From Ilumatobacteraceae bacterium (GTDB lineage: Bacteria > Actinomycetota > Acidimicrobiia > Acidimicrobiales > Ilumatobacteraceae), in contig CAVQTE010000017.1 in assembly GCA_963716235.1 (NCBI GenBank), positions 26,295-90,294 of the forward strand: a stretch of DNA of 64,000 nucleotides. Direction: 5' to 3'. Of this stretch, positions 31,345-64,000 are shown one piece after another (positions within the stretch are counted from its first letter, which is position 1; every line of letters starts with the position of its first letter). Under the pieces are notes generated by a model that was not told the DNA's origin, searched no databases, and saw only the letters and a list, made by a program, of their open reading frames with translations. The translations under genes were made by a program, and so were the position numbers.

Positions 31345-31380
31345 TCTGCCCTGCTCAGGGGTAGCGACGTAGACATTTCG

Positions 31381-31386: not shown

Positions 31387-31423
31387 CAGCCCGGGCCTCG
31401 GCGGCGCGATCCGTAGGGTCGCA

Positions 31424-34950: not shown

Positions 34951-35912
34951 TGGACGACGAACTGTCGGCACTGCCCGAACCATTGGTCGATGTCGACCTC
35001 CCGCTGACCGATCGACGCGACGGCAAGGTGCGAGTCTCGTACGCACTCTCCGACCATCGGAGGCTCTTCGTCACCACCGATCGGCTGTCGGCATTCGACC
35101 GCATCATCGCAGGCGTTGCGTACAAGGGTCAGGTGCTGAACCAGCTCTCGTGGTGGTGGTTCGAGCACTCACGCGACCTCGTCGCCAATCATGCGCTGTC
35201 GACACCGGACCCGAATGTGCTGCTCGCGCGTGAAGCGACCCCGCTCTCCGTCGAAGTGATCGTTCGCGGGTACATCACGGGCGTCACCGACACCGCGCTG
35301 TGGACCCGATACGCAGCGGGCGAACGCCTGATCTACGGGTATGCATTCCCCGACGGGCTGAGGAAGAACACGCCACTTCCCGCGCCGATCATCACCCCGA
35401 CAACCAAGGGAGGAGCCGGGGCCCACGACGAACCGCTGTCGTCGACCGCTGTGGTCGAGCAGGGATTCGTCGACGCAGAGCTGTGGGCCGCCGTCGAGGC
35501 CGCAGCCCTCGCGATGTTCGAACGCGGTGCCCAACGTGGGCTCGAGGCCGGCCTCATCCTCGCCGACACGAAGTTCGAGTTCGGCGTGACAGCCGAGGGT
35601 GAACTGTTGCTGATCGACGAGGTGCTCACACCGGATTCCTCCCGCTGGTGGATCGCCGACACCTACGACGAACGCGTCATGGCAGGCACCGAACCCGAGA
35701 GCCTCGACAAGGAAGTCGTCCGTCGGGCACTGGCCGATGCGGGCTACACCGGCGACGGCCCGATCCCGCAACTGCCTCGCGAGGTGTGGAGCGCCACGTC
35801 GGCGCGCTACATCAACACCTACGAGCGCATCACGGGGACCACGTTCGTCCCGGGCGTCTACCCTGCGGGGCCACGGATCAACGCTGCTGTCGCTCGACTG
35901 GAGATCACCTGA
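34950..35912 (+). CDS. purC: SAICAR synthetase
   Basis: The start MDDELSAL overlaps the purQ stop by 1 nt (TGATG). Blocks DRLSAFD, ILADTKFEFG and DEVLTPDSSR are present. Confidence 0.9.
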   Translation: MDDELSALPEPLVDVDLPLTDRRDGKVRVSYALSDHRRLFVTTDRLSAFDRIIAGVAYKGQVLNQLSWWWFEHSRDLVANHALSTPDPNVLLAREATPLSVEVIVRGYITGVTDTALWTRYAAGERLIYGYAFPDGLRKNTPLPAPIITPTTKGGAGAHDEPLSSTAVVEQGFVDAELWAAVEAAALAMFERGAQRGLEAGLILADTKFEFGVTAEGELLLIDEVLTPDSSRWWIADTYDERVMAGTEPESLDKEVVRRALADAGYTGDGPIPQLPREVWSATSARYINTYERITGTTFVPGVYPAGPRINAAVARLEIT

Positions 35913-35913
35913 C

Positions 35914-37380
35914 ATGACCAAACTTCACCGGCCCATCCCTGTGACAGCAGTGCCGAACGACGACTCCCCCAAGGACGAATGCGGGGTCCTCGGCATCTCG
36001 ACGCCGCACGGCGAAGGTGTGGCACAGCTGGCATTCTTCGGCCTGTTCGCGCTGCAACATCGCGGCCAGGAGGCCGCAGGGATCGCCGTCAGTGACGGCA
36101 AGCGGGCTCGTGTCCACAAAGAGGCGGGTCTCGTTGCGAACGTGTTCACGCCGGAAGCGCTTGCACCCCTCACCGGCTACCACGCCATCGGCCACACCCG
36201 GTACTCGACCACCGGCTCGAATGCGGAGCGCAACATCCAGCCGTTCCTGGTCGAGACGATGCACGGGCCGTTGGCCCTCGCCCACAACGGCAACGTCGTC
36301 AACGCGCCGGCGTTGCGTGACGAGCTGTTGAACCGGGGATTCGGGCTCACTGCAACCAGCGACTCCGAGGTGATGACGCTGATGCTCGCCGCCGCGGGCG
36401 GCCAGACCTGGGAGGAGCGCATCGAGCGCACGCTGCCGGCATGGAAGGGCGCATTCTCGCTCGTGCTGCTGGCGGCCGACCACGTGATCGCCGTGCGTGA
36501 CCCCTGGGGTTTCCGGCCGCTGTCGATCGGCCGCCTCCCCCATGGCGGTCACGCCGTTGCCAGCGAGACCTGCGCCCTGTCGACGCTCGGATGTGTCGAC
36601 ATCGAGGAAGTACAGCCTGGCGAGATGGTGACCCTGATCGGCGCCGAGATGCACCGGTCACAGGTGCTCGCTCCCCAACCACGAGGCGCGCGATGCACGT
36701 TCGAGTTCGTCTACTTCTCGCGCCCCGACTCGGTGTGGGACGGCCGCAACGTCCACCACGTCCGCCAGCGTCTCGGGGTGCAGCTCGCCCAGGAAGCTCC
36801 GGCCGACGCCGACGTGGTGATTCCCGTGCCCGACTCGTCGATCCCGGCCGCGATCGGATTCTCCAACGAGAGCGGCATCCCCTTCAACGACGGACTGATC
36901 AAGAACCGGTACATCGGCCGCACGTTCATCGAGCCCACCCAGGACATCCGTGAGCGTGGCGTCGCCCTCAAGTTCAATGCGCTCAGAGAGAACCTCGAGG
37001 GCAAACGGGTGGTGATGATCGACGACTCGCTCGTGCGCGGCACCACTGCGGGGCCCCTCGTGAAGCTCGTGCGAGACGCGGGAGCGACCGAGGTCCACGT
37101 TCGCATCACGTGTCCGCCGATCACGCACGCGTGTCACTTCGGCGTCGACATGGGCCACGATGGCGACCTCATCGCCGCACGGCTCCGCGTGGACGAGATG
37201 CGTGAGCACATCGGCGCCGACAGCCTGGCGTTCCTGTCGCTCGACGGGATGATGTTGGCGGTGGCCGACACCCCCGCGCACGACGACGACGGCTACTGCA
37301 ATGCCTGTTACACCGGGCGGTATCCGATGAACGTCGGTGATGCGCAGCCCAAGCTCTCGTTCGAAGGCGTGCTCGCCTGA
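35914..37380 (+). CDS. purF: Amidophosphoribosyltransferase
   Basis: DECGVLGI (Ntn Cys), LQHRGQEAAGIA, and the PRPP motif VVMIDDSLVRGTT. Confidence 0.9.
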   Translation: MTKLHRPIPVTAVPNDDSPKDECGVLGISTPHGEGVAQLAFFGLFALQHRGQEAAGIAVSDGKRARVHKEAGLVANVFTPEALAPLTGYHAIGHTRYSTTGSNAERNIQPFLVETMHGPLALAHNGNVVNAPALRDELLNRGFGLTATSDSEVMTLMLAAAGGQTWEERIERTLPAWKGAFSLVLLAADHVIAVRDPWGFRPLSIGRLPHGGHAVASETCALSTLGCVDIEEVQPGEMVTLIGAEMHRSQVLAPQPRGARCTFEFVYFSRPDSVWDGRNVHHVRQRLGVQLAQEAPADADVVIPVPDSSIPAAIGFSNESGIPFNDGLIKNRYIGRTFIEPTQDIRERGVALKFNALRENLEGKRVVMIDDSLVRGTTAGPLVKLVRDAGATEVHVRITCPPITHACHFGVDMGHDGDLIAARLRVDEMREHIGADSLAFLSLDGMMLAVADTPAHDDDGYCNACYTGRYPMNVGDAQPKLSFEGVLA

Positions 37381-39573
37381 TGCGGGTACTGGTCATCGGA
37401 TCGGGTGGCCGCGAGCAAGCGATTGTGTGGGCCTGCCGGCACCACGGCCACGACGTGCGCATCGAGGCAGCCCTCGGTGACGCATCCACCGACGACACCG
37501 ATCTCGTGATCCCCGGCCCCGAAGCGGTGCTCGTCGCCGGTGTCGCCGACGAATGCGCAGCGTCGCGGCATCCCGTGCTTCGGCCCCACCGCCGACGTGG
37601 CCCGACTCGAATCGTCGAAGTCGTTCGCCCGCGAGCTGGCGACGTCACTCGGCATCCCCGGCCCGGCGTTCGGCCGTTTCGACGACGCCGGCGAAGCGAT
37701 CGCCTGGTGGAACCGGCTGGCGCGCCCCATCGTCGTGAAGCTCGACGGCCTCGCCGCGGGCAAGGGTGTCACGGTGCCGTCGACCGATGCGGAGACCGTC
37801 GACGCGATCACGGCGGCGGCCACCGTCGGCCCCTTCGTGCTGGAAGAGCGGCTCCACGGTCCCGAATGCTCGCTGCTCGCGCTCTGCGACGGCTCCCGAG
37901 CCGTGGCACTGCCGATCGCCCAGGACCACAAGCGCATCGGCGAGGGCGACACCGGGGCCAACACGGGTGGCATGGGCGCCTACGCCCCGGCTCCGGTCCC
38001 CTACTCGGCCGATGAACTGCTGGCGACGTTCGTCCAGCCGATCCTCGACCACCTCGCGGCGAACGGAACGCCGTACGTCGGTGTGCTGTTCGCCGGGCTG
38101 ATGCTGACCGCCGACGGTCCACGGCTCATCGAGTACAACGTCCGCTTCGGTGATCCGGAGGCCCAGGCCGTGCTGCCGTTGCTCGAGACCGACCTCGCCG
38201 ATCTGGCCCTGGCGTGCACTCGGGGATCGCTCGACGACATCCCACTCGTCGTGCGCGCGCAGTCGGCGCTCACCGTTGTCGCTGCGGCGCCCGGGTACCC
38301 CGCCGCCCCGGTGACCGGGGCCACCGTCACCGATCACATGCAGAGCGGCGTCATCGGTCCCGACGGCACCACGACCCTGCGGTTCGACGCCGCCGTCGAC
38401 GCCGAGGGTCGGGTTGCCGGTGGTCGGGTGCTGGCGGTCACCGGGATCGGCTTCGATCTCGCCGAAGCCCGTCGCGCCGCGTACGAGCACATGGCGAACA
38501 TCCACTTCGACGGGATGCAGGTGCGACGCGACATCGGCTGGCGCGCGCTCGGCGCGGGCCTCGCGTCGTATGCCGCGGCCGGGGTCGACATCGACGAGGG
38601 CAGTCGCGCCGTTTCCGAGATGAAGGCGGCCGTCGAGGCCACCCATGACAACGGCGTGCTCAAGGGTGTCGGCAGTTTCGGTGGCGTGTTCTCGGCGAAG
38701 GCGATCCTGGAGCTGGACGATCCGGTGCTCGTGGCGTCGACCGACGGCGTGGGAACGAAGGTCGAACTCGCCGCTCGACTCGGCATGGTCCGGGGCGTGG
38801 GGATGGACATCGTCAATCACTGCATCGACGACGTGCTCGTCCAGTCGGCGCGGCCGCTGTTCTTCCTCGACTACATCGCCGCCAGCGTGCTCGACGCCGA
38901 CATGGTCGCCGAGGTCGTGCGCGGGATGGCCGACGCCTGTCGGGCAGCTGGCTGTGCGTTGCTGGGCGGAGAGACCGCTGAGATGCCGGGCGTCTACCAG
39001 CCGGGTGCGTTCGACATCGCGGGCACTCTCGTCGGCGTGGCCGAACGGTCCGAGCTGCTCCCCCGGGCCGACGTCGCGGCCGGTGACGTGCTCATCGGCG
39101 TCACCTCGAGCGGACCCCACACCAACGGCTATTCGCTGCTGCGCAAGATCTTCGACTGGATCCCGATGGACGTCGTCCCCGACGGCTTCGATCGTCCACT
39201 CGGCGAGACGCTGCTGGAGCCGCACCGTTCGTACCTCGACGTATTGCGTCCTGCGCTCGATTCGGGTCACGTGAAGGCCCTCGCCCACATCACCGGTGGG
39301 GGCCTCCCCGAGAACCTCCCGAGGGTGCTGCCCGACGACGTCGACGCCGTGATCGAACTCGGTTCGTGGCCGGTGTCACCGCTGTTCGCGCTCGCACGGG
39401 AGTTGACGCCGCTGATGGAGACCGACGAGCTCTACCGCACACTGAACATGGGCATCGGCATGGTCATCGTGTGCGCCCCCGACGAGGCGGACGCGTTGCG
39501 GGCGACCATCGCCGAGCCCACCTGGATCATCGGCACCCTGCGGCCCGGCTCCGGCACCGTCCACCTCACCTGA
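37380..39573 (+). CDS. purD-purM: PurD-PurM fusion (GAR synthetase + AIR synthetase), frame interrupted by an apparent 1-nt indel near 37563-37567
   Basis: MRVLVIGSGGREQAI...GVADECAA is in the frame of ATG 37380. GIPCFGPTADVARLESSKSF...RRDIGWRAL then continues in the +1 frame (ORF 37540-39573). It runs without a stop into PurM (SYAAAGVDIDEG, DGVGTK, GGETAEMPG). Confidence 0.8.
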
Positions 39574-39725
39574 AACCCGAGAACCCACCCGAACCCCGAA
39601 ACATGCCGCCCTGTGCACGCTCGGCGCGCGAACCGGTGCACATTTCGGCATGGCGGAATGGTGTGCGGATGGATTTTTCGTTCAGCCTCATCGGTGCCGT
39701 GGCTCTCCATCGCTAGGTTCGACAC

Positions 39726-40367
39726 ATGGGAGCCACCGACACCGACCGCCCGACACGGGCCAGGCGACTGGTCGTTCTCGTGTCGGGAAGCGGTTCGAAC
39801 CTCCAGGCCATCATCGATGCCTGCGCCGATGACCGCCTCCCGGCCGAGGTGGTGGCCGTCGTCTCGAACAAGGCCGATGTCTTCGCACTCCAGCGCGCCG
39901 ACGCCGCCGGGGTTCCTGCCGTTCACGTCGGCGTGCACCCCGGCGAGGAACGCGCCGACTACGACGCCCGCCTCGCCGACGTCGTCGCGGGTTTCGACCC
40001 CGACCTGGTCGTGCTCGCGGGATGGATGCGCCTGCTCACGATGAGCTTCCTCGGCTGGTTCCCGAACCGGGTGGTCAACCTCCACCCGGCCCTCCCCGGC
40101 GATCTACCCGGCACCCGCGCCATCGAACGGGCATGGGACGACGCGATCGCCGGCACTCGCACGCAGACCGGCGTGATGGTCCACTTGGTCCCGGACGAAG
40201 GTGTCGACGACGGTCCGGTGCTCGGAACCGCCACGATCGACATCGACACCGCCGCCGGGTTCGACGCATTCGCCGAACTCGTGCACGCCACCGAGCACCG
40301 GCTCCTCGTCGACACGCTCTCCTCGCTCTGTACCGCCACCCCCGACCGCACGGAGGTCTCCGCATGA
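39726..40367 (+). CDS. purN: Phosphoribosylglycinamide formyltransferase
   Basis: Blocks [25 protein letters not shown] and [14 protein letters not shown]. Confidence 0.9.
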
Positions 40368-41887
40368 CCGATCAACGCCGCACCAGCCCGAACGACGACT
40401 TCTTCGACCGGTTCGAGGCCCTGACCTTCAACGACGTCGTCGTGATCCCCGGCTACTCCGAGACACTGCCCGACGAGGTCGACACGTCGGCGACGTTCGC
40501 CGCGGACATCGAGTTGGCCGTTCCCCTCGTGTCCGCCGCGATGGACAAGGTGACCGAGGGCCGGATGGCGGTCGCCATGGCCCGTCACGGGGGCATCGGT
40601 GTGATCCACCGCAACATGTCGATCGTGGACCAGGCGTCGGAGGTCCAGAAGGTGAAGCGTTCGCAGTCGGGCATGATCACCGACCCGGTGACCCTCGCCC
40701 CGACCGCCCTGCTCCACGAGGCGGAGGCCCTGATGCACCGCTTCAAGTTCTCGGGCGTTCCGATCACCGACCCCGACGGGCGACTCGTCGGCATCCTCAC
40801 CAACCGCGACATCCGCTTCTGCGAGGGGTCCGACTTCGAACGACCCGTCACCGACTTCATGACTGCCGACGGTCTCGTGACCGCCGAGGTCGGCACCTCA
40901 CTCGATCAGGCCAAGGCGATCCTGCAGCAGCACCGCATCGAGAAACTTCCCCTCGTCGACGCCAATGGTCACCTCGCCGGTTTGATCACCGTCAAGGACA
41001 TCCAGAAACGACTCGACTTCCCGAACGCCTCCCGTGACGCCCGTGGGAGGCTGCGATGCGCAGCTGCGGTCGGAGTAGGCGCCGATCTGGAGGAGCGTGT
41101 CGAGGCGCTCGTGGCAATGGGTGTCGACGCGGTGTCGATCGACACTGCCCACGGCCATTCGGCGAATGTCGTCAAGGCCATCCAGCGCATCAAGGGGTCG
41201 TGGCCCGATCTGCCGGTGACGGCCGGCAACGTGGTCACCGAGGAAGGCGTCGAAACGCTCGCCGGCGCCGGCGCGGATGGCGTCAAGGTCGGTGTCGGAG
41301 CCGGTTCGATCTGCACAACCCGCGTGGTGTCCGGGGCGGGCATGCCCCAGTTGTCGGCGATCTGGTTCACGTCCCAGCGCGCGCGTCGACTCGGGATTCC
41401 GGTGATCGCGGACGGAGGCATCACCTTCTCCGGCGACATCGTGAAGGCGATCGTCGCCGGTGCGTCCACGGTGATGCTCGGGTCGTTGCTCGCGGGCACC
41501 GAAGAGAGCCCTGGCGAGATGGAGCTGTTCGAGGGACGCCGGTACAAGAGCTACCGCGGCATGGGTTCGATGGGCGCCATGACCGGCGACAGCCAGGACC
41601 GATACGCCACTGGCCAGTCGTCGGGCGGCAAGACCGCCGTCGGCGCCGGGAGCAGCAAGCTCGTACCCGAAGGCATCGAGGGTCGTGTGCCGTATGCCGG
41701 CCCGCTCGGCGACGTCGCCTACCAGCTCGTCGGCGGTCTCCGCTCGGGTATGGGCTACGCCGGCGCCGCCACGCTCGACGCCCTCCGCAGCGCCCGCCTC
41801 ATGCGGGTCACCGCAGCCGGCCGTGAGGAGTCGCACCCCCACGACGTGACCATCACGAAGGAAGCCCCGAACTACCAACGGTCCTGA
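40364..41887 (+). CDS. guaB: IMP dehydrogenase
   Basis: The start MTDQRR overlaps the purN stop (ATGA). A CBS pair is present, with the catalytic loop [11 protein letters not shown] and GGITFSGD. Confidence 0.95.
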
Positions 41888-45136: not shown

Positions 45137-46705
45137 ATGAGTGGGCTGCTGCGGAGCAACGTCGTCGTTGCCAGCGGCACCGCGCTGTCGAGGATCACCG
45201 GACTGTTCCGGTTGATCATCCTCGGCTACGTGCTCGGCCAGACAGCCCTCTCCGATGCCTACCTGATCGCCAACGAGACCCCGAACATCGTCTACGAGCT
45301 GCTGCTCGGCGGCCTGCTGTCGGCCACGCTCGTGCCGTTGTTCTCGACCTTCGTCGAGACCGACGACGACGAGGCGACGAACGTGGTGCTCACGGTGTCG
45401 GTGACGCTGATGGCGGCGTTGACCGTCGTCGCCGTGATCGCCGCGCCCCTGATCTTCGGGTTGTACTCGGTCAACGTGGCCGACGGCGTCGACGCCGACC
45501 TCTACCGATCGGTCGGAACCACTCTCGCGCGCATCTTCCTGATCCAGATCCTCTTCTACGGACTCGTCGGCCTCGCCAATGCATTCCTGAACAGCCGCCG
45601 ACGGTTCTTCGCCGCTGCCTGGGCCCCGATCCTGCCGAACATCATCATCATCGCGTTCCTGCTGTCGTTGCCGAATCCGGGCTCGGCCGACTGGCAGCTG
45701 GAAGACGTGCTCTCGGACGACCGTCTCCGTTGGACGCTCGGGCTCGGCGCAACGGTCGGGATCGCCACGATGGCGGCCGTGCTCATCCCGGCGATGTTCG
45801 CCACGGGGTTCAAGTTCCGCCCGAACTTCGACGTCCGTCACCCGGCAGTGCGCAAGCTCCTGTCGCTGTCGTTCTGGACCATCGGATTCGTCGTGGCCAA
45901 CCAGGTGGCCCTCCTCGTGGTCCGCAACCTCGCCGAACCCGGATCGAGCGGTGCGAGCGCCTACATCAACGCATTCACCTTCTTCGTGCTCCCCCATGGC
46001 CTCTTGGCGGTCTCGATCGCCACCACGTTCCAACCAGAGATGTCGCGATCGGTGGCGCGCCGCGACCGAGCGGGCTTCGTCGACCAGGCCTCACTCGGCC
46101 TCCGGATGACCGCTCTGTTCACGATCCCGGCGGGTGTGGGGATCTTCGTACTGCGTCAACCGATCATCGGAGCGCTCCTCCAGCGAGGCGAATTCAGTGC
46201 CGCCGATGCCGACGCCGCCCAACGGGCACTGGCCGGGCTGGCTCTCGGCCTCGGTGCATTCTCCATCTACATGTTCGTGCTCCGCGGTTTCTACGCCCAC
46301 AAGGACACCAAGACACCGTTCAAGATCAACGTCGTCGAGAACCTCATCAACATCGTGCTCGCCTTCGTCCTCGTGGATCGCTACGGCGTGCTCGGACTCG
46401 GGCTGGCGTTTGCGCTGGCGTACCTGATCTCGTCGGTGTGGGCGATGCAGGTCCTGAGCTACAAGGTGCCGGGATTCTCCGTGCGTTCGATCCTTGCCAG
46501 CATCGGTCCGATGCTGCTCGCCGCGCTCCTGATGGCCGAAGCGGTGTGGCTGGTGACCAATCAGGTCGGCGGGAACGCCGGTCTCGATGCGGTCGTTCGG
46601 CTCGGCGTGGGTGCTGTCGTGGGAGTCGGCGTCTACCTCGGCGTGTTGTACGCACTCGGCGCCCCCGAACTCGACGCCGTCCGCCGACGCCTCCACCGGA
46701 CCTGA
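45137..46705 (+). CDS. murJ: Lipid II flippase MurJ
   Basis: The start is MSGLLRSNVVVASGTALSRITG, followed by LSDAYLIANETPNIVYELLLGG. The protein is polytopic. Confidence 0.9.
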   Translation: MSGLLRSNVVVASGTALSRITGLFRLIILGYVLGQTALSDAYLIANETPNIVYELLLGGLLSATLVPLFSTFVETDDDEATNVVLTVSVTLMAALTVVAVIAAPLIFGLYSVNVADGVDADLYRSVGTTLARIFLIQILFYGLVGLANAFLNSRRRFFAAAWAPILPNIIIIAFLLSLPNPGSADWQLEDVLSDDRLRWTLGLGATVGIATMAAVLIPAMFATGFKFRPNFDVRHPAVRKLLSLSFWTIGFVVANQVALLVVRNLAEPGSSGASAYINAFTFFVLPHGLLAVSIATTFQPEMSRSVARRDRAGFVDQASLGLRMTALFTIPAGVGIFVLRQPIIGALLQRGEFSAADADAAQRALAGLALGLGAFSIYMFVLRGFYAHKDTKTPFKINVVENLINIVLAFVLVDRYGVLGLGLAFALAYLISSVWAMQVLSYKVPGFSVRSILASIGPMLLAALLMAEAVWLVTNQVGGNAGLDAVVRLGVGAVVGVGVYLGVLYALGAPELDAVRRRLHRT

Positions 46706-46743: not shown

Positions 46744-46799
46744 CCGGTTTGCGTTGCAGTTCCATTGGCCCGCACCAACCGAAGTGCAACGCAAACCGG
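46744..46799. terminator. Long inverted repeat between convergent murJ and proB
   Basis: Perfect 15-bp arms CCGGTTTGCGTTGCA / TGCAACGCAAACCGG separated by 26 nt. No U-tract. Confidence 0.5.
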
Positions 46800-51536: not shown

Positions 51537-52349
51537 TCAGGTCGGCTCGAAGATCCAGCCTCGCCTGACGGGCGGCCGGGCGTCGTGTTCGATGAACCAC
51601 TCGGTGCCGAACACCATCGCGAACACCTCGTCGGGCATGTCGAAGAAGAACGACGTGTCGGAGATCTGGCTGCGATGGCAGCGAATCCCCGCACGCTTGG
51701 CCGCGAGGTGCTCCGTCACGTCGACGGCCAACGTGAGGTCGGCCTCCAGCATGCCCATCGGGTTGCCGTCGTCGGCAGGACCGTGCGGATCGAAGTCGCC
51801 GTCGGCGCCGTCGGGGGCTTCGACGCCTGCGTCGCGCATCGCCTGGATCATCTGGGCGAAGGCGTCGCGGTTCATGGTCGCCTCGAGCACCCGCACGGAC
51901 GGCACGAGGCGTCCCGCTGCCGACCCGACGCGGTGCACCGCGATGTGGTCGGGATGGCCGTAGTTGCCGTGCCAGTCGTAGATGGTCAGGACCTCGGCGG
52001 ATTCCTCGCGCAGCACTGCTGCCAGTCGCTCGGCGGCCTCGTCGAGGTCGGCACGCAGGAAGCTCGCAGGATCGCCGTTCTGCTCCCATCCGGTCATGCC
52101 CGAATCGGTGTAGCCGAGCCACACGATCCGGGCCACACCGAGCGCTGCAGCCGACGCTTCGGTCTCGACGCGTCGGCGATCGACGAGCGTCTCGCCGGGC
52201 GCGAGGTCGTCGGGCACCTCACCGTGATCGCCGTTCGTTGCCACGACCAGGACCACCCGGTGCCCCTCGGCCGCGGCGCGCGCGATGGTGCCACCGGTGC
52301 TGATGACCTCATCGTCGGGATGGGCGTGGAAGCAGACCAGCGTTGCCAT
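51537..52349 (-). CDS. PIG-L/LmbE family deacetylase (MshB/Mca-like)
   Basis: The start MATLVCFHAHPDDE is at ATG 52349. HPDH lies downstream. Confidence 0.85.
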   Translation of the reverse strand: MATLVCFHAHPDDEVISTGGTIARAAAEGHRVVLVVATNGDHGEVPDDLAPGETLVDRRRVETEASAAALGVARIVWLGYTDSGMTGWEQNGDPASFLRADLDEAAERLAAVLREESAEVLTIYDWHGNYGHPDHIAVHRVGSAAGRLVPSVRVLEATMNRDAFAQMIQAMRDAGVEAPDGADGDFDPHGPADDGNPMGMLEADLTLAVDVTEHLAAKRAGIRCHRSQISDTSFFFDMPDEVFAMVFGTEWFIEHDARPPVRRGWIFEPT

Positions 52350-52351
52350 GC

Positions 52352-53524
52352 TCAGCCGGCCGCCGGCTCGGCCTGTTTCACCGCTCCCGACGATTCCCAC
52401 GACTCGATGACGTCGGCACCGACACCCCACTCGCTGAGCACCTCGCGGGTGTGGGCACCGGCGAACGCAGGTGGCATCGACACCTCCGGCACGGTACGGC
52501 TGAACCGTGGGGCGGGCGCTGGCTGGGTGGTTCCGGCGATGTCGATGAACGTGTTGCGTTCCACGTTGTGCGGATGCCGGGCCGCCTCGCCCATCGTGAG
52601 CACGGGGGCGAAGCACACGTCGGTCGCTTCCATGATCTCGCACCACTCGGCTCGCGACTTCTGGGCGAAGACCTCGGTCAGCCGGGACTTCAACGCCGGC
52701 CACTCGGCCTTGTCCATCTGTCGGGCGAACTGCTCGTCACCCTCGAGACCGGTGAGGCGGAGCAGCTCGGCGTAGAACTGCGGCTCGATCGATCCGAGTG
52801 AGATGTACTCGCCGTCGCTGCAGCGGTACACGTCGTAGAAGTGGGCGCCGGTGTCGAGCAGGTTCGTGCCTCGAGCGTTCTCGTCGTGCATGCCGATCGA
52901 CCGGAATGCCCAGAACATCGACATGAGCACTGCGGCACCGTCGACCATGGCCGTGTCGACCACTTGGCCCTGGCCACTGCGCTGCGCTTCCAGGAGGGCA
53001 CACACCACGCCGTAGGCGAGGAACATGCCGCCGCCGCCGAAGTCGCCGACCATGTTGAGCGGCGGTACCGGCGCCTCGCCGGCACGGCCGAAGTGCGCTA
53101 GGGCGCCGGCGAGCGAGATGTAGTTGATGTCGTGGCCGGCGGCCTGGGCGTACGGGCCCTCCTGCCCCCAGCCGGTCATCCGCCCGAACACGAGCTTCGG
53201 GTTGCGGGCGAGACACTCGTCGGGGCCGACGCCGAGACGTTCCATCACGCCCGGGCGGAACCCTTCGATGAGCGCATCGGCCGACTCGACGAGGCTCAGC
53301 AGCGCCTCCACTCCGTCCGGGTGCTTCAGGTCGATCGCCACGTTGCGGCGGCCGCGCAGCAAGACGTCGTAGTGCGCCCCCTCGGGCAGCGGTCCGCGAA
53401 CCGCACCGGCGCGTTCGACACGAACCACTTCGGCACCCATGTCGGCGAGCAGCATCGCCGCGAACGGCCCCGGGCCGATGCCGGCGATTTCGATGATGCG
53501 GTATCCGGTCAGTGGTCCAGCCAT
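52352..53524 (-). CDS. Family III CoA-transferase / alpha-methylacyl-CoA racemase-like
   Basis: [37 protein letters not shown] and GHDINY. Confidence 0.9.
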
Positions 53525-57112: not shown

Positions 57113-58453
57113 TCAGTCCGGACGGTTGCCCGACACGGTCATGCGAATACGCAGCGCGTCGATGGCAAACCCGTCCATCCTCAGCACCTCGAACTCGCCG
57201 ATGTCGGTGAGCACTCGGTCGCCCTCCGAGGGAATGTCGTCGAACGCATCGATGACGTATCCGGCCACCGTCTGCCAGTCGCCCTCCGGCAGCTGCACAC
57301 CTGTGAACTCCTCGAAGTGCTCGACCCTGGTCGACCCGCTCATCTGGTAGCTCCCGTCGGGGAGTTGCTCGCACTCACCCAGGCGACGGTCGGACTCGTC
57401 GTCGAAGTCGCCGATCAGCTCCTCGAGAACGTCTTCGAGGGTCACCAGGCCGAGAACGAGGCCATGTTCGTCGATCACCAGTGCGATGTGTTGGCGTTCG
57501 GTCCTCATCTCGAGCAGCAGGTCTTCGAGACCATGGTGCTCGGGAGTGACCATCACGGGGCGAGCCATGCTGCCCGCCTGCGTCGTCGGCCAGATGCCCA
57601 TGTCGAGTCGGATCACGTCCTTCGCGTGGACGAATCCCCGCACGTGGTCGAGATCGCCCTCGTGGATGATCACGCGGGTGCGTCCGGTCCGATGCGCCTC
57701 GGCGGCGACATCGGCCGCAGTCGCCTCCGCGGGAACGGCGACGATGTCACGACGTGGTGTCATTGCATCGGCCGCAGTGAGGCCGGACAACTCGAGCGAG
57801 CGCGCCAGGAGCTGATGCTCGTCGGCCGCAATTCCGCCGCGTCCGGCCGACTCGTCGATCAGCAACAGGAGCTCACTCGGCGAGTGGGCCATCGCTCGTT
57901 CGTCCTGCGGTTCGACACCGACCAGGCGCACCACGACGTTCGCCATCCAATTGAGCAGGCGGATGATCGGTCGAACGACCCGGGCGAACATGCGGAAGGG
58001 TCGCGCCAGGAGAAGTGACGACTTCTCGGGATGGGCGATCGCCCACGACTTCGGTGCCATCTCACCCACCACCATGTGGAGGAAGACGACGATCGACAAT
58101 GCGATGGTGAACGCGATGATGTGGCGAGCCGTATCCGACAGGGTGAACAGCTCGCCGAGTGCGCCCTCGATGATGCGAGCGACAGCAGGTTCGGCAACGG
58201 CACCGAGCCCGAGCGAGCACATCGTGATGCCGAGCTGCGCGCCCGCCAACATCAACGTCAGCTCACGAAGCCCTGCGAGCGCGTGCTTGGCCCGCTTGTC
58301 GCCTTCGACCGCCAGCTGCTCGATGCGCGAGCGACGCGATGCGAGGAGCGCGAACTCGGCGGCGACGAAGAACCCGTTCAGCGCGAGCAGCACGAAGGCG
58401 AGACCGAGACTCGACCAACTGACCTGGATCCCGTCGGACGCGGCGAGCATCAT
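57113..58453 (-). CDS. CNNM/CorC-type hemolysin family protein (DUF21-CBS-CorC_HlyC)
   Basis: The start MMLAASDG overlaps the upstream stop (ATGA). Blocks FFVAAEFALLASRRSRIE, a CBS pair and a C-terminal transporter-associated domain are present. Confidence 0.85.
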   Translation of the reverse strand: MMLAASDGIQVSWSSLGLAFVLLALNGFFVAAEFALLASRRSRIEQLAVEGDKRAKHALAGLRELTLMLAGAQLGITMCSLGLGAVAEPAVARIIEGALGELFTLSDTARHIIAFTIALSIVVFLHMVVGEMAPKSWAIAHPEKSSLLLARPFRMFARVVRPIIRLLNWMANVVVRLVGVEPQDERAMAHSPSELLLLIDESAGRGGIAADEHQLLARSLELSGLTAADAMTPRRDIVAVPAEATAADVAAEAHRTGRTRVIIHEGDLDHVRGFVHAKDVIRLDMGIWPTTQAGSMARPVMVTPEHHGLEDLLLEMRTERQHIALVIDEHGLVLGLVTLEDVLEELIGDFDDESDRRLGECEQLPDGSYQMSGSTRVEHFEEFTGVQLPEGDWQTVAGYVIDAFDDIPSEGDRVLTDIGEFEVLRMDGFAIDALRIRMTVSGNRPD

Positions 58454-59841
58454 CGGTCGCCACGTTCGGCATCGTCGGAGTCCACATCGTCGTCGGTCTC
58501 GGCGATCCGCAACTGCAGACGCTGGATCGCGAATCCGTCGACCTCGAGGACCTCGATCTCGATCCCGTCGACGACGAACGACTCGCCGACCGCCGGGATG
58601 TGCTCGAGGCGGTCGAGGACGAGACCTGCAACGGTGTCGTACTCGCCGTCGGGCAGGTCGAATCCCGTGATCCGCTCGATCTCGTCGGGACGCGAACTCG
58701 CGGCCACCGACCACACGCCGGACTCGATCTCGACGTGCTCACCGCGAGCGCTCGGGTCGTACTCGTCCTCGATGTCGCCGACCAGTTCCTCGACGATGTC
58801 TTCGAGTGTCACCACTCCGGCGGGCCCGCCGTATTCGTCGATGACGACGGCCATCTCGGTGGCGTGCGCACGAAGTTCGGCGAGCACCACGCTCAGTCCG
58901 GCCGCTTCGGGCACGGCCAGGATCTCGCGCACCAGCGACGTCACGGCCGTGGTCTCGTACTCCGTGCGGGGAACGCCGAGGAGGTCCTTCGCGTGGACGA
59001 CGCCGTGGACCCGATCGTCGTCGTCGACCACCGGGAATCGCGAATGCGACGACGACATCAGGTCGCGCAGATCGGCAGCGGTCGCATCGGCGTCGATGGT
59101 GACGACACGGTTCCACGGCACCATCGCGTCGGATGCTTCGAGTTCACCGAAGTCGATGGCCCGCTCGAGCAACTGTGCCTGCAGCAACGTCAAGTGGCCG
59201 CTCTCGGCAGACGAATCGACGATCAGATCGAGTTCCTCGGTCGACACCGCGCCGTGCAGTTCCTCGACCGGCTCGACTCCGACGAGTCGGAGCAGGCGGT
59301 TCGCGGCGCCGTCGAACAGGCGGATCACCGGCCCGGCAACCCGCATGAAGATCCATGTCGATGGAGCCAACGAGCGGGCGACGGGCTCGGGGCGGGCGAT
59401 GGCGAGGTTCTTCGGCGCCAGTTCGCCGAACACCATCTGCGCCATCGTGACGAAGACGAGGGCCAGCACCAGGGCGATCCCGAGCGACGCCGATTCGGGG
59501 ACGCCGGCCGCTTCGAGTACGGGGGCGAAGACCGAAGCGATGGCCGGCTCGGCGATGAAACCGAGGGCCAACGTCGTCACCGTGATGCCGAGTTGCGCTC
59601 CCGACAACATGAAACCGAGTCGCTTGTGGACGTCGATCGCCCGTTTCGAGCGGCGATCACCCTCGCGCGCCTGCTCGACGAACCGACTCCGGCGCGCCGC
59701 CACGAACGCGAACTCCACGGCGACGAAGTAGCCGTTCGCGGCGATCAAGGCGACGACACCGATCAGCCCGAGAGCAGTCAGCACGGCGTCAACTTCGTTT
59801 TCGGTCGGCGGACATGTGTGGCCAGATGTTATCCACACCAC
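58450..59841 (-). CDS. CNNM/CorC-type hemolysin family protein (paralogue)
   Basis: YFVAVEFAFVAARRSRFVE, a CBS pair and a CorC_HlyC domain. The start is uncertain (GTG 59841 or GTG 59784). Confidence 0.8.
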   Translation of the reverse strand: MVWITSGHTCPPTENEVDAVLTALGLIGVVALIAANGYFVAVEFAFVAARRSRFVEQAREGDRRSKRAIDVHKRLGFMLSGAQLGITVTTLALGFIAEPAIASVFAPVLEAAGVPESASLGIALVLALVFVTMAQMVFGELAPKNLAIARPEPVARSLAPSTWIFMRVAGPVIRLFDGAANRLLRLVGVEPVEELHGAVSTEELDLIVDSSAESGHLTLLQAQLLERAIDFGELEASDAMVPWNRVVTIDADATAADLRDLMSSSHSRFPVVDDDDRVHGVVHAKDLLGVPRTEYETTAVTSLVREILAVPEAAGLSVVLAELRAHATEMAVVIDEYGGPAGVVTLEDIVEELVGDIEDEYDPSARGEHVEIESGVWSVAASSRPDEIERITGFDLPDGEYDTVAGLVLDRLEHIPAVGESFVVDGIEIEVLEVDGFAIQRLQLRIAETDDDVDSDDAERGDR

Positions 59842-59876
59842 TCGGCGACCGTGGTGACCCGGCTAGCCTTCCCGCC

Positions 59877-60350
59877 ATGTCAACCTTCCATGAGTTCGAG
59901 ATGACCTCGATCACGGGTGAGCCGGTCTCCTTCGACCAGTTCAGCGGTCAGATCTGTCTGATCGTCAACGTCGCGAGCGCTTGAGGCCTCACGCCTCAGT
60001 ACGCAGGTCTGCGTGCACTTCATGACGACAACGACGACGTGACCGTCCTCGGCTTTCCGTGCAACCAGTTCGCCGGGCAGGAACCGGGATCCGACGCAGA
60101 GATCCTCGAGTTCGCCACCTCGAAGTACGGGGTGACGTTCCCGATGTTCCACAAGATCGAGGTGAACGGCGACGGCGCCGCTCCGCTGTACCAGTGGCTC
60201 AAGGCGGAACAACCCGGCGAGGGCGACAGCACCGACATCACCTGGAACTTCGAGAAGTTCCTGGTCGACAAGGGAGGCAACGTCGTCGCTCGGTTCGGTC
60301 CGACAACCACACCGGAGCAGGTGGCCGAAGCCCTCGACAGCTACCGTTGA
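59877..60350 (+). CDS. Glutathione peroxidase with in-frame TGA (candidate selenocysteine) at the catalytic position
   Basis: My own translation from ATG 59877 reads ...QICLIVNVASA-TGA(59982-59984)-GLTPQYAGL...VLGFPCNQF...WNFEKFLV. The GPx signature is continuous across the TGA. The ORF track has only 60039-60350. Confidence 0.75.
59985..60030 (+). promoter_or_regulatory. Candidate bacterial SECIS element
   Basis: Hairpin GUACGCA-GGUC-UGCGUGC at 59999-60016, 14 nt after the UGA. The apex GCAGGUCUGC resembles the E. coli fdhF SECIS apex. Confidence 0.55.
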
Positions 60351-60375
60351 TCGGGATGATCGGTCGTCGAGCATC

Positions 60376-61527
60376 ATGACGATCGAGTTCACCCACAACG
60401 AACGGCCGACGGTCGGCATCGAGATGGAACTCCACGTGGTCGACCGCGCCACCGGCGACCTCGTCTCGGCCGCCAACGAACTGCTTGCCGAATTGGGGTC
60501 GACCCATCCGGGAGGTGAACACCCGAAGGCCAAGCACGAACTGTTCCAGAGCACGATCGAGATCATCACCGGCGTCTGCGAAACGCCTGCCGACGCCGGT
60601 GACGACCTTCGCACGACCCTCGCCGAGCTTCGTGTCGCCGCCGATCGGCGAGGCCTCGCGCTGATGAGTTCGGGCACCCATCCGTTCGCGCTCGCCCGCG
60701 ATCAGTTGGTGAGCCCCGATCTGCGCTATCACGAACTGATCGAGTCGATGCAGTGGCCCGCTCGTCGGCTCCTGATCTGCGGCTTGCACGTGCATGTCGG
60801 TGTCAGCGATGGCGCTCGTGCGATCGCGATCATCAACGAACTGCGGCGTCACCTGCCGCTGTTCCTGGCGCTGTCGTCGTCGAGCCCATTCTTCGAGGGC
60901 GAAGATTCGGGACTCGCATCGGCACGGTCGAAAGTGTTCGAATCGCTGCCCACCGCCGGGCTCCCGCCACAGCTCGCCGACTGGACCGACTTCGAGGCCT
61001 TCATGTCGACGCTGCTCGACTCGAGGTGCATCAGCTCCATCCGCGAGGTGTGGTGGGACATCCGCCCGCACCCCGACTTCGGCACGGTGGAGTTCCGCAT
61101 GTGTGACGCAACCCCGACCGTGCGCGAGGCTGTGGCGCTCGCCGGACTCGCCCAGACGCTCGTGGCCTGGTGCAATTCCCGCATCGACGACGGCACGCTG
61201 CCCAGTGCGCCGCGCGAGTGGACCGTGCGCGAGAACCGGTGGCTGGCGGCCCGGTTCGGCATCGATGCCGACCTGATCGTCGAGCACCCCGACACCGGGC
61301 ACCCCGATCGGCGATCGGTACGCGACCTTCTGACCGACCTGGTCGACGAACTCGGCCCCACGGCGCAGGGGCTCGGGACGACGGCCCAGCTCGCTGACCT
61401 CCTCACCTTGCTCGACGTCGGCACGAGCGCAACGCTCCAGCGAAAGGTCGTCGAGGCCGGCGGTACGCTCGTCGACGTGGTCCACCTCCTGGTCGACAGC
61501 CTGGCCGCCGACGAACTCCCCTCATGA
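60376..61527 (+). CDS. ybdK: Carboxylate-amine ligase, YbdK/GCS2 family (gamma-glutamyl-cysteine ligase-like)
   Basis: 383 aa with blocks VGIEMELHVVD, LHVHVGV and WWDIRPHPDFGTVEFRMCD. Confidence 0.9.
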   Translation: MTIEFTHNERPTVGIEMELHVVDRATGDLVSAANELLAELGSTHPGGEHPKAKHELFQSTIEIITGVCETPADAGDDLRTTLAELRVAADRRGLALMSSGTHPFALARDQLVSPDLRYHELIESMQWPARRLLICGLHVHVGVSDGARAIAIINELRRHLPLFLALSSSSPFFEGEDSGLASARSKVFESLPTAGLPPQLADWTDFEAFMSTLLDSRCISSIREVWWDIRPHPDFGTVEFRMCDATPTVREAVALAGLAQTLVAWCNSRIDDGTLPSAPREWTVRENRWLAARFGIDADLIVEHPDTGHPDRRSVRDLLTDLVDELGPTAQGLGTTAQLADLLTLLDVGTSATLQRKVVEAGGTLVDVVHLLVDSLAADELPS

Positions 61528-62717
61528 CCACCGTCTCACCCTCACTGGCTGAGTGGCTGAATGAACACGGCGAAGGCCTCATCGCTCTGCGACGCAACCT
61601 CCACGCCCATCCTGAGCTCAGCGGCGCCGAGCACGCGACCACCGAGCTCGTCGAGGAACGACTCCGCCTGGCCGGGCTCGAACCGCGTCGCCTGGCAGTG
61701 GGAACCGGTCTCGTGTGCGATCTCACTCCGACGAACCGCAATGGCGGGTTCGAGCAGCTGCTCGCACTGCGCGCCGACCTCGACGCACTGGCCATGACCG
61801 ACGACAAGGATGTCTCGTACGCCAGCCGACACCCTGGCGTCGCCCACGCCTGCGGGCACGATGTCCACACCACGATCGTGCTGGGCGCGGCGTTGTACTT
61901 CGCCCATCACCGAGACAATCTGCCCGGACCGGTCCGCTTCGTGTTCCAGCCGGCCGAGGAACGGGTACCCGGCGGTGCTCTCGACGTGATCGGCGATGGT
62001 GGACTCGACGGCGTCGGAGCAATCGTCGGTGTGCACTGTGAACCCAAACTCGATGTCGGAACGATCGGCCTCAAGTCGGGCGCGATCTCATCGGCTGCCG
62101 ACATGGCCGTCATCCGGATCGTCGGGCCGGGTGGACACACCGCGCGTCCTGAACTCACCGTCGACCTCGTGTCGCTCGCCGCACAAATCGTGAACGAGCT
62201 TCCAGGACGCGTCGCCGGCCGACTCGACGATCCCACCCAGGTGAAGCTCGTGTTCGGAGCGATCCACGCGGGCGATGCCGCCAACGTCATCCCCACCCAC
62301 TGTGAACTGAAGGCATCGATCCGAACCCCCTCACTCCCGGTCTGGGAGCGCTTACCCGAACTCGTCGAAACCGAAGTCGTGAAGATCGTCGGCGAGTCCG
62401 GTGCTGTCCTCGAGATCGATTACACCCACGGCGTCCCACCGGTCGTCAACGATGCCGACGTCACCGAGACGCTCCTCCGTGCGGCCGTCGACGTGGTGGG
62501 CGCGCATTCGGTCGCCATGGTCGAGCAGAGTTGGGGGGGCGACGACTTCGCGTGGTTCACTCGTGAGGTTCCGGGTACCTATGTCCGCCTTGGCGTGCGC
62601 GACCCGGTCGGTCCCACGCTCGACCTCCACGCCGGCCACTTCGACGTCGACGAACGGTCGATCGCGCTCGGCGTGCGCTTGCTCGTGGGGGCCGTCCACG
62701 AACACTTCCGCACATGA
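61524..62717 (+). CDS. M20 family amidohydrolase (N-acyl-amino-acid/dipeptide hydrolase type)
   Basis: LHAHPELSGAE, ALRADLDALAM and ACGHDVHT. The start overlaps the ybdK stop (ATGA). Confidence 0.9.
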   Translation: MTTVSPSLAEWLNEHGEGLIALRRNLHAHPELSGAEHATTELVEERLRLAGLEPRRLAVGTGLVCDLTPTNRNGGFEQLLALRADLDALAMTDDKDVSYASRHPGVAHACGHDVHTTIVLGAALYFAHHRDNLPGPVRFVFQPAEERVPGGALDVIGDGGLDGVGAIVGVHCEPKLDVGTIGLKSGAISSAADMAVIRIVGPGGHTARPELTVDLVSLAAQIVNELPGRVAGRLDDPTQVKLVFGAIHAGDAANVIPTHCELKASIRTPSLPVWERLPELVETEVVKIVGESGAVLEIDYTHGVPPVVNDADVTETLLRAAVDVVGAHSVAMVEQSWGGDDFAWFTREVPGTYVRLGVRDPVGPTLDLHAGHFDVDERSIALGVRLLVGAVHEHFRT

Positions 62718-63274
62718 ACACCGACACATGGGTGTTCGGTTACGGGTCGCTGGTGTCGCCGACCTCGTTGGCCTCGACCATCGGACGCCAGGTCGCGCCC
62801 GGTGACATCATTGCCGTCCATCTCCACGGGTACGGACGGCGATGGAATTACGGGTCACTGCACCTGCGAGGGGACTGGCGCCACGACGACATCGACGTCC
62901 AGCAGGGTGTGGTCATCTCGCTCGGGCTGGTCCACGCGGAGGGCGAACACTGCAACGGCGTCGCTGTGCGGGTCACCGAGGAGGAGCTCGCCCGACTGGA
63001 TTGGCGCGAACGTGACTACGAGCGAACCGACGTGACGGACCGGATCGAGACCGACCTCGCGGGCCTGCCGATCGTCACCTACGTCCCGCGGCCGAGTGCC
63101 GTCGAGCGATACGAGGCGGCCCGCGACGATCACCGAGCCGCGATCCGACGTTCGTACTGGGATCTCGTCAGTCAGGCGTTCGCCGACCTCGGCGACCACC
63201 ACTCGACGACCTACGCGTCCACCCCCGCCCCGGACGTGCCGGTGCTGGACATGACGTTGTCACTCCTCGGCTGA
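62714..63274 (+). CDS. Gamma-glutamylcyclotransferase (ChaC/GGCT-like)
   Basis: WVFGYGSL N-terminal motif, YGRRWN and LDWRERDYER. The start overlaps the M20 stop (ATGA). Confidence 0.8.
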   Translation: MNTDTWVFGYGSLVSPTSLASTIGRQVAPGDIIAVHLHGYGRRWNYGSLHLRGDWRHDDIDVQQGVVISLGLVHAEGEHCNGVAVRVTEEELARLDWRERDYERTDVTDRIETDLAGLPIVTYVPRPSAVERYEAARDDHRAAIRRSYWDLVSQAFADLGDHHSTTYASTPAPDVPVLDMTLSLLG

Positions 63275-63886
63275 AGGATCGGGTGAAGTATCGGGCGACA
63301 GCTCGTTCAGCTTCACCCACAGCGCGTCGACCTGCTCGATCAACGAGTCACGATCGCCGCCGTTGTCGACCACGTGGGTTGCCGTGGCCAAGCGGTCCTC
63401 GCGGCTGATCTGGCTGTTGATACGGGCTCGGGCGTCGGCTTCGTCCATCCCGCGTTGATCGACGAGACGCTGCACCGCCACATCGACGGGAATGTCGACG
63501 ACGATCGTGGCGACGAGCCCCTTGCGAGGGTTCTCGCCGAGCAGTGGGAAGTCGAGCACCACCACGCGATCAGTGCCACGATGCACGTCGATCTGACGCT
63601 GGATCTCGTCCTGCATCGCCGGGTGGACGATGCCGTTGAGATCCTTCAGCGCCGACTCGTCGTTGAAGACGATCTTGGCCACAGCACCCCGATCGAGCGC
63701 ACCGTCGGCGAGCAGGATGTGATCGCCGAACCGTTCGGCCATCGCGGCAAGGACCGGGCTGCCCGGAGCCTGGAGGTCACGGGCGATCTGATCGGCATCG
63801 ACGATCGCCGCACCGCGTTCGGCGAGCATCGCCGACACCGTCGACTTGCCCGCTCCGATTCCCCCGGTCAAACCGACCAGGATCAC
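63260..63886 (-). CDS. coaE: Dephospho-CoA kinase
   Basis: (V)ILVGLTGGIGAGKST P-loop. The GTG start overlaps the upstream stop (GTGA). Confidence 0.9.
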   Translation of the reverse strand: MILVGLTGGIGAGKSTVSAMLAERGAAIVDADQIARDLQAPGSPVLAAMAERFGDHILLADGALDRGAVAKIVFNDESALKDLNGIVHPAMQDEIQRQIDVHRGTDRVVVLDFPLLGENPRKGLVATIVVDIPVDVAVQRLVDQRGMDEADARARINSQISREDRLATATHVVDNGGDRDSLIEQVDALWVKLNELSPDTSPDPSAEE

Positions 63887-64000
63887 TCGGCGGGCGCTTC
63901 CTCCAGCACGACGTCGTCGACAACGACGTCCTCGACGACGACGTCCTCGACGACGACGATGTCGTCACCCGACTCGTCGGTGACTTCGACGGGCTCGGTG
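63883..64000 (-). CDS. 3' end of an upstream gene with acidic repetitive C-terminus (possibly ribosomal protein S1)
   Basis: The minus-strand reading is ...DDIVVVEDVVVEDVVVDDVVLEEAPAE*. The rpsA-coaE order is common in Actinomycetota, but only 39 codons are visible. Confidence 0.35.
   Translation of the reverse strand, partial: TEPVEVTDESGDDIVVVEDVVVEDVVVDDVVLEEAPAE

Follow-up and report, generated by a model that had tools for sequence, protein, structure and literature searches.

A selenocysteine peroxidase gene and a proposed accessory ligase-amidohydrolase-cyclotransferase module in Ilumatobacteraceae

Do four co-directional genes of an Ilumatobacteraceae bacterium, headed by a peroxidase gene with an in-frame TGA codon, form a self-contained gamma-glutamyl-thiol redox operon? 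The genes fill positions 59877-63274 on the + strand of a 64,000-nucleotide (nt) stretch of contig CAVQTE010000017.1 (the window), and they encode a glutathione peroxidase (GPx)-family protein, a YbdK-type GCS2 carboxylate-amine ligase, an M20 subfamily D (M20D) amidohydrolase and a divergent GGCT/ChaC-like protein. A sequence-only reading had proposed that together they make, use and degrade a gamma-glutamyl-cysteine-type thiol and that the peroxidase is a selenoprotein. The evidence strongly supports the GPx gene as a genuine selenoprotein gene, in which UGA36 would be recoded via an fdhF-like selenocysteine insertion sequence (SECIS) hairpin directly downstream. For the locus as a whole, we tentatively prefer a two-part reading: a genuine selenocysteine (Sec) GPx and, beside it, a co-transcribed accessory set of ligase, amidohydrolase and cyclotransferase genes whose products would turn over an amide of the gamma-glutamyl type. 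We give this reading slightly less than an even chance. The features of the cluster are as follows.

59877-60350, + strand: Sec GPx-family gene of 157 codons (product of ~17 kDa) with U36; NVASAUGLT catalytic motif, FPCNQF and WNFEKF; no resolving Cys
59982-59984, + strand: Sec codon, an in-frame TGA at the peroxidatic position
59999-60016, + strand: SECIS hairpin GUACGCA-GGUC-UGCGUGC, with a 7-bp stem and a GGUC loop, from predicted fold and nucleotide conservation
60376-61527, + strand: YbdK-type GCS2 carboxylate-amine ligase, 383 amino acids (aa); GhExE signature present as GIEME at residues 14-18
61524-62717, + strand: M20D amidohydrolase, 397 aa; HACGHD motif; start overlaps the GCS2 stop (ATGA)
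62714-63274, + strand: divergent GGCT-fold (ChaC/AIG2-like) protein, 186 aa; YGSL motif and the invariant Glu of LDWRERDYER; start overlaps the M20 stop

The selenocysteine codon and its SECIS hairpin

The first gene matched Pfam GSHPx (PF00255) with an E-value of 4.5e-39 and 132.8 bits against a cutoff of 27. The context of the catalytic tetrad was complete, comprising U/C, the Gln of FPCNQF and the Trp-Asn of WNF, and these motifs were invariant across the orthologues. The TGA was codon 36, exactly at the catalytic position of NVASx[U/C]GxT, where it makes a UxxT motif (UGLT); GPx-like proteins with UxxT count among the recognised selenoprotein families of bacteria (PMC1088965; PMC13188914). 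The catalytic codon was TGA in 58 of the 59 orthologous GPx loci and TGT (Cys) in locus L053 only, and in the orthologues, which were 57-94% identical, coding ran in frame through the TGA.

The loop of the SECIS hairpin begins 21 nt past the UGA. The downstream sequence CAGTACGCAGGTCTGCG was essentially invariant among the 58 TGA loci, and the rare changes within the hairpin preserved pairing (U·G to U-A and G-C to G·U), with one mismatch, in L041. Among 49 distinct full-length GPx coding sequences, the third-position entropy at codons 41-46 was ~0, including at four-fold degenerate Ala, Gly, Leu and Arg codons, compared with 1-2 bits at comparable codons elsewhere in the gene, and this freeze of synonymous sites points to constraint at the RNA level. 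The 10-nt core GCAGGTCTGC of the window hairpin is also the core of the E. coli SECIS, whose functional 17-nt form is ggttgcaggtctgcacc (PMC3834832). The fold z-score of the 57-nt stretch folded was only -1.7, so the case for the SECIS rests on conservation and not on energy. A lower hairpin that pairs the UGA itself in the minimum-energy fold (59982-59998) was not conserved, the third positions of its Thr and Pro codons varying freely; therefore, the upper hairpin alone was counted as the SECIS.

Rfam searches in both gathering and E-value modes, run on the window and on 59800-60400, returned no SECIS or tRNA-Sec match, bacterial SECIS elements being poorly represented in Rfam. No selA, selB, selC, selD or tRNA-Sec gene was found within the 64-kb window. 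Two further candidates were rejected. A 91-nt 'tRNA-Asp(atc)' called by ARAGORN at 46525-46615, considered as a mis-called tRNA-Sec, lies inside the MurJ coding sequence, has no Rfam tRNA match and is a false positive. A second exact copy of GCAGGTCTGC, in intergenic DNA at 3729-3738, was considered as the mark of a hidden selenoprotein; no suitable in-frame TGA or open reading frame (ORF) accompanies it, and the copy is probably due to chance. The Sec machinery was recently reported to be universal in Actinomarinales, a sister order within Acidimicrobiia. Taken together, the TGA in 58/59 loci and the hairpin conserved at synonymous sites bear out the selenoprotein call of the sequence-only reading. 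This Sec-GPx spans an abundant soil and aquatic actinobacterial family and adds to the very recent evidence of Sec use in Acidimicrobiia. Because its SECIS is nearly the E. coli consensus, the window GPx is probably expressible as a selenoprotein in E. coli.

The Sec-form GPxs had no Cys in the resolving-Cys block, the position of which we take to be that of yeast Gpx3, and position 80 was Ala or Val in all of them. In thioredoxin-dependent 2-Cys GPxs, the resolving Cys lies ~44-48 residues past the peroxidatic residue, and the window GPx has none there. Therefore, the usual intramolecular route to thioredoxin is probably not used, and a small-thiol reductant appears possible; mammalian Sec-GPxs are reduced by a small thiol. 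In L053 (GPx region ~7499-7969), the sole Cys form, the SECIS sequence was lost and Cys77 was gained near the resolving-Cys block, a combination suggesting a switch of mechanism alongside the Sec-to-Cys change.

Order and modular make-up of the locus

The arrangement of the four genes in the window was operon-like. The 4-nt ATGA overlaps at 61524-61527 (GCS2/M20) and 62714-62717 (M20/ChaC-like) were present, the spacing from GPx to GCS2 was 25 nt, no terminator-like sites were found between the four genes, and base composition was even throughout the cluster region. These observations confirm the overlaps and the four co-directional genes described from the sequence and uphold the coupling proposed there. 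A promoter scan of 59500-64000 found no promoter, and the gap of 35 nt between the first CNNM gene and the divergent GPx gene suggests leaderless or internal promoters. The flanking genes are as follows.

57113-59841, - strand: a tandem pair of transporter genes of the CNNM/CorC type (CBS domain), facing away from GPx and belonging to the conserved backbone; for the upstream ORF, the start at 58714 probably extends it too far
63260-63886, - strand: coaE (dephospho-CoA kinase), from Pfam; convergent with the ChaC-like gene, the 3' ends sharing 15 nt

Conservation of the arrangement was assessed in 80 loci from species-representative genomes, nearly all Ilumatobacteraceae or Ilumatobacter and all anchored on the ChaC-like protein. 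GPx, GCS2, M20 and ChaC-like genes stood in the window order in 42 of the 80 loci, with ChaC-like identities of 54-97%. In these colinear loci, the gaps were typically 7-60 nt for GPx-GCS2, -1 to ~100 nt for GCS2-M20 and -1 to ~40 nt for M20-ChaC. An order that recurs in 42/80 species-level genomes exceeds chance, and the synteny in relatives on which the sequence-only reading had staked its proposal was thus present.

The four genes did not, however, behave as one evolutionary unit. The GCS2-M20-ChaC trio occurred in 45/80 loci, and M20-ChaC occurred in ~51/80 by a hand tally that includes split or contig-truncated M20 genes (L066, L017 and L052). GPx was followed directly by the ChaC-like gene, without GCS2-M20, in 8 loci; coaE and then the ChaC-like gene lay on one strand with GPx on the other in 10 loci; and coaE preceded the ChaC-like gene without any GPx in ~9 loci. 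The trio stood without GPx in 3 loci (L037, L038 and L045), and M20-ChaC stood alone in 4. At least 18 genomes with no GCS2-M20 at the locus still had a GPx gene with TGA and SECIS, so that GPx and the ChaC-like gene both persist without the pair. The cultured strain Ilumatobacter nonamiensis YM16-303 has the TGA in a locus of this kind. Two of the 8 GPx-ChaC-only loci, L041 (7633-7956) and L054 (7081-7773), still carry decayed M20 (37% identity) or GCS2 (31% identity) sequence in between, remnants of the lost pair. The tightest physical pair in the cluster was M20 with the ChaC-like gene.

In a quick neighbour-joining tree of the ChaC-like proteins, midpoint-rooted and without support values, the coaE-then-ChaC-like loci all fell in one clade and the loci with GCS2 or M20 all fell in the other, the orientation of the ChaC-like gene flipping between clades. 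The GPx-ChaC-only loci were scattered as single leaves among the four-gene loci, which implies that GCS2 and M20 disappeared together about six times independently, and the M20-ChaC-only loci formed one clade in which GCS2 was lost. Since GCS2 and M20 were gained and lost together, they probably function together. The cluster is therefore modular: the accessory GCS2-M20 pair has been lost repeatedly as a pair, and GPx and the ChaC-like gene belong to the backbone. The trio, ATGA-coupled in the window, is ancestral to a large Ilumatobacteraceae clade.

The steadiest partner of the ChaC-like gene was coaE, its immediate neighbour (<300 nt) in 63/80 loci, within a conserved backbone of rpsA-coaE-[ChaC-like]-[GPx]-CNNM-CNNM-uvrB. 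Furthermore, a 398-aa CoaE-ChaC-like fusion (P0126) was found among 1.8 billion representative proteins; the 90% cluster around it comprises five full-length proteins from several metagenome contigs (also P0271-P0274). The fusion locus (L081, 8001-9197) reads polA...rpsA-[coaE::ChaC-like]-Sec-GPx-CNNM-CNNM-uvrB, with the GPx on the opposite strand and carrying the TGA, and this order places the cluster in the conserved actinobacterial rpsA-coaE-uvrB neighbourhood. The link and the fusion explain why many ChaC-like proteins bear the JGI name 'dephospho-CoA kinase'. No description of a CoaE-GGCT fusion was found in the literature searched. On a more speculative reading, prompted by the fusion and the near-universal adjacency, the GGCT-like protein would be a functional partner of dephospho-CoA kinase; if so, gamma-glutamyl/5-oxoproline chemistry would be tied to CoA, itself a thiol.

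Some further features of these neighbourhoods were recorded. Many relatives (e.g., L002, 3417-5105) carry between the first CNNM gene and GPx a gene for a 563-aa MFS transporter with a C-terminal cyclic-nucleotide-binding domain; this insertion, absent from the window, was seen in most four-gene loci with a ~1.75-kb CNNM1-GPx gap. Elsewhere in the window, 31373-41887 holds a purine-biosynthesis cluster (Pfam: FGAM synthase, SAICAR synthetase, amidophosphoribosyltransferase, a GARS+AIRS fusion and IMP dehydrogenase), a housekeeping context. Just 3' of murJ, at 46744-46799, is an inverted repeat that is long and near-perfect (CCGGTTTGCGTTGCA...TGCAACGCAAACCGG); it gave only spurious miRNA matches in Rfam and may be a bidirectional terminator.

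What the module may do

The ligase matched Pfam GCS2 at 3.4e-64 and passed NCBIfam NF010043 (477 bits, cutoff 409) and TIGR02050 (310, cutoff 176). It stayed far under the cutoffs of the EgtA model (TIGR03444, 19.6 vs 370.8), the cyanobacterial GshA model (TIGR02048, 58.5 vs 249) and the plant glutamate-cysteine ligase model (TIGR01436, 14.7 vs 463). Its GhExE signature is part of the Mg/ATP site (PMC2588565). Its only relatives of solved structure were E. coli YbdK (1R8G) and the Salmonella orthologue. On these profile scores, the window GCS2 is classed as YbdK-type and not as a proven glutamate-cysteine ligase of the EgtA/GshA type. YbdK-type GCS2 genes are common in mycothiol-producing actinobacteria, and the presence of one here is thus not unusual as such.

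The third gene product contained Peptidase_M20 and M20_dimer domains and was placed in subfamily D by TIGR01891 (289 bits, cutoff 154). The more specific equivalog models all failed (CpsA, 264 vs 500; DoeB2, 213 vs 550), and the closest structure was YxeP (1YSJ, E 2e-57). In loci without GPx, a gene for a GNAT acetyltransferase of ~355-380 aa was observed divergently upstream of the (GCS2-)M20-ChaC-like genes (L037, 2451-3515; L045, 3767-4831; L047, 5680-6741; L060, 5556-6692). The GNAT domain was tandem in L037, L045 and L047 and matched over a single stretch only in L060. The tandem form was considered as MshD and rejected, giving no NCBIfam mycothiol-synthase match; a GNAT gene beside an M20D deacylase recalls the YxeL/YxeP pair of B. 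subtilis.

The last gene product matched Pfam ChaC at 31.6 bits (cutoff 21), over model positions 2-115 of 176 only, and GGACT at 25.1 bits (cutoff 22.8), and no NCBIfam model matched it. The motif WVFGYGSLV spans residues 6-14; G9-Y10-G11-S12-L13 and E99, the Glu of LDWRERDYER, were invariant across 29 ChaC-like sequences, and the C-terminal helical extension was conserved. A PDB search with the single sequence gave nothing meaningful, so a profile and a structure model were needed. The profile search found an AIG2-like protein at 5e-5 and ChaC2 only at E 0.7. The AlphaFold model built with the 29 homologues (pLDDT 84.6) matched ChaC2, GGCT, AIG2-like proteins and YkqA in Foldseek with probability 1.0 and about equal TM scores of ~0.55 at 11-20% identity (ChaC2 6KY1, E 1e-7, TM 0.57; GGCT 2RBH, TM 0.55; AIG2-like 2JQV). 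Given the partial Pfam match, the lack of an NCBIfam match and the equal fold matches, the protein was filed as a putative divergent GGCT-fold enzyme and not as an established glutathione-specific ChaC. GGCT-like domains of this family were also observed at the C terminus of many ~460-510-aa proteins, examples being P0149, P0153, P0160, P0276 (NCBI MEM7338752.1), P0139 and P0269. These proteins have an N-terminal two-transmembrane segment and a ~200-aa domain without a Pfam match; the GGCT-like domain is doubled in one protein, and a TIR domain is present in one.

The profile matches thus support the GPx, GCS2, M20 and ChaC/GGCT family assignments made from the sequence, with two reservations. 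The YbdK/GCS2 call stood, with scores that set the ligase apart from EgtA and from proven gamma-Glu-Cys ligases; the GGCT fold and the YGSL motif were recovered and a clear ChaC was not. The description of the module as unusual is weakened by the frequency of YbdK-type GCS2 genes in mycothiol producers.

From family properties alone, we infer that the trio would act in the turnover of a small compound, either gamma-glutamyl or of a similar carboxyl-amide kind. The YbdK-type ligase would form the amide using ATP, the GGCT-like enzyme would cyclise the glutamyl part to 5-oxoproline and free the amine, and the M20D enzyme would hydrolyse an N-acyl or peptidyl bond of the precursor or product. The outcome would be a salvage or homeostasis loop resembling the gamma-glutamyl cycle, perhaps acting on gamma-Glu-Cys and expressed together with the peroxidase. 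For its own activity the peroxidase would not need the trio module, and the cyclotransferase-like protein might have an additional role, linked to coaE and independent of GCS2-M20.

Several points weigh against this reading. An operon that both makes and degrades one compound would run a futile cycle in the absence of regulation. The ChaC-like gene occurs in at least 25 genomes without GCS2-M20, which implies that its substrate is not solely the ligase product, barring another ligase elsewhere. Lehmann et al. (2004) reportedly found YbdK to be only a weak gamma-Glu-Cys ligase in vitro. No gshB or 5-oxoprolinase was found among the Pfam-scanned genes of the 64-kb window. The synteny, seen in one family, could partly reflect descent over function, and since the ChaC-like gene served as the anchor for all 80 loci, the counts cover GCS2-M20 only where it lies beside that gene. 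The putative substrates of all three enzymes come from their families.

The strongest alternative is that the genes share no pathway. They would be neighbours by descent on a housekeeping backbone, with an independent GPx, a ChaC-like protein working or regulated with CoaE, and GCS2-M20 as an unrelated pair inserted by chance. The rpsA-coaE-ChaC-like-GPx-CNNM-CNNM-uvrB order does occur without GCS2-M20, which vanish as a pair, and this view fits the adjacency of coaE in 63/80 loci, the fusion on several contigs and the differing ChaC-like orientation between clades. The close tie between M20 and the ChaC-like gene speaks the other way: the two overlap or lie no more than ~40 nt apart in ~50 genomes and stay joined even without GCS2 and GPx (the D2 clade). 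In the window, ATGA coupling joins all three genes, and the chemistries of a ligase and a cyclotransferase for gamma-glutamyl amides complement each other. We consider the absence of any shared pathway unlikely, though it retains appreciable weight.

The self-contained module of the sequence-only reading, in which GCS2 makes gamma-Glu-Cys or a close thiol as the dedicated reductant of the Sec-GPx and the M20 and ChaC-like enzymes recycle or degrade that thiol, fared worse. Its synteny, coupling and family assignments held, the four genes being colinear and tightly spaced in 42/80 genomes. The Sec forms without a resolving-block Cys and the Cys77 gained by the Cys form in L053 fit small-thiol reduction, and the GCS2 family holds weak or real gamma-Glu-Cys ligases. 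The modularity of the locus argues against it, however: TGA and SECIS are kept in GPx in the at least 18 genomes without GCS2-M20 at the locus, the trio stands without GPx in L037, L038 and L045, about six losses of GCS2-M20 left GPx and the ChaC-like gene in place, and throughout one clade the ChaC-like gene is co-transcribed with coaE or fused to it. The ligase is of the YbdK type, far under the EgtA and cyanobacterial GshA cutoffs, no gshB or 5-oxoprolinase accompanies it in the window, and no result points to a thiol as substrate. There are also signs of mycothiol. Acidimicrobiia have an annotated mycothiol S-conjugate amidase (PMC5962788), and the window contains a PIG-L deacetylase gene (51537-52703, - strand), which is transcribed separately and lies 7 kb away from the cluster. 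This gene, already noted from the sequence, is real and its best matches are MshB/Mca-like, yet both fell below cutoff in NCBIfam (MshB, 144 bits vs 224; Mca, 115 bits vs 277). We therefore regard the self-contained module as only partly supported and, as a whole, improbable.

The proposal that the resolving-Cys-less Sec-GPx is recycled by a gamma-glutamyl thiol from the co-transcribed YbdK-type ligase, with the M20D and GGCT-like enzymes trimming or recycling that thiol, is a long shot. If true, it would give YbdK/GCS2 ligases their first physiological role and would place selenium-dependent peroxide defence with a non-mycothiol redox buffer inside Actinomycetota. Finally, the idea that the TGA is a nonsense mutation, pseudogene or sequencing error deserves practically no credence: the lack of tRNA-Sec and sel genes in the window and of an Rfam SECIS match, the latter in a database without good bacterial SECIS models, is outweighed by a TGA kept in 58/59 independent genomes with intact downstream coding, which effectively refutes it, and by strong nucleotide-level constraint on the hairpin.

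The closely related genomes form a natural experiment: some carry GCS2-M20 and others lack it, and the cyclotransferase-like gene may be inverted or joined to coaE. It could be used to find the physiological substrate of YbdK-type ligases and the reductant of a bacterial Sec-GPx without a resolving Cys.

Comparison with known systems

Like the gamma-glutamyl cycle and the yeast GCG1/Dug1 route, the cluster brings together a ligase for gamma-glutamyl bonds, a cyclotransferase and a metallopeptidase of the M20 family; in yeast, ChaC (GCG1) and Dug1 (M20A) form a glutathione degradation route. It differs in having no glutathione synthetase, gamma-glutamyl transpeptidase or 5-oxoprolinase and in that its M20 protein belongs to subfamily D and is not a Dug1-type M20A. 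No description of a GCS2+M20D+GGCT operon was found in the literature searched. In Firmicutes, a related family of carboxylate-amine ligases lies beside Aig2-type gamma-glutamyl cyclotransferases, with glutathione-like peptides as its predicted products (Iyer, Burroughs & Aravind 2008, PMC2588565), and sets a precedent for the module. These neighbourhoods likewise pair a ligase of the superfamily with a GGCT-fold gene, but the ligase is a separate, newly defined family and not YbdK-type GCS2, and no M20 or GPx gene was reported with it.

Compared with its individual relatives, the ligase is homologous to E. coli YbdK (PDB 1R8G) over its full length (E 1.5e-51, residues 5-370), with the GhExE signature and passing scores in the YbdK-family NCBIfam models; we know of no link between E. 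coli ybdK and an M20 or GGCT gene. With EgtA and the proven glutamate-cysteine ligases it shares the Pfam superfamily and differs in equivalog scores far under their cutoffs. The amidohydrolase has the TIGR01891 match, the dimerisation domain and the HACGHD motif in common with B. subtilis YxeP (1YSJ), Arabidopsis ILL2 and S. aureus HmrA-type enzymes. The last gene product shares the GGCT fold, YGSL and a catalytic-type Glu with ChaC, GGCT, GGACT and AIG2-like cyclotransferases, whereas its match to the ChaC model ends after the N-terminal two thirds, and it carries a C-terminal extension and is linked or fused to CoaE.

The window SECIS has the same 10-nt core GCAGGTCTGC as the 17-nt E. coli fdhF SECIS (GGTTGCAGGTCTGCACC), with a GGUC apical loop on a GCA/UGC stem. 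It differs in its lower stem, has no obvious bulged U and is a putative SelB-binding element; the window loop presumably lies one codon further from the UGA than the fdhF loop. The bacterial UxxT GPx selenoproteins (Zhang et al. 2005, Sargasso Sea; PMC13188914) have in common with the window GPx the PF00255 domain, a peroxidatic U in UxxT and a SECIS stem-loop right after the UGA with a G in the apical loop. No report of a Sec-GPx in Ilumatobacteraceae (Acidimicrobiia) was found in the literature searched. The window GPx is set apart from the known proteins by the lack of a resolving Cys and by being a family-wide syntenic gene in Ilumatobacteraceae, and it adds a well-supported new protein to an already known family of selenoproteins.

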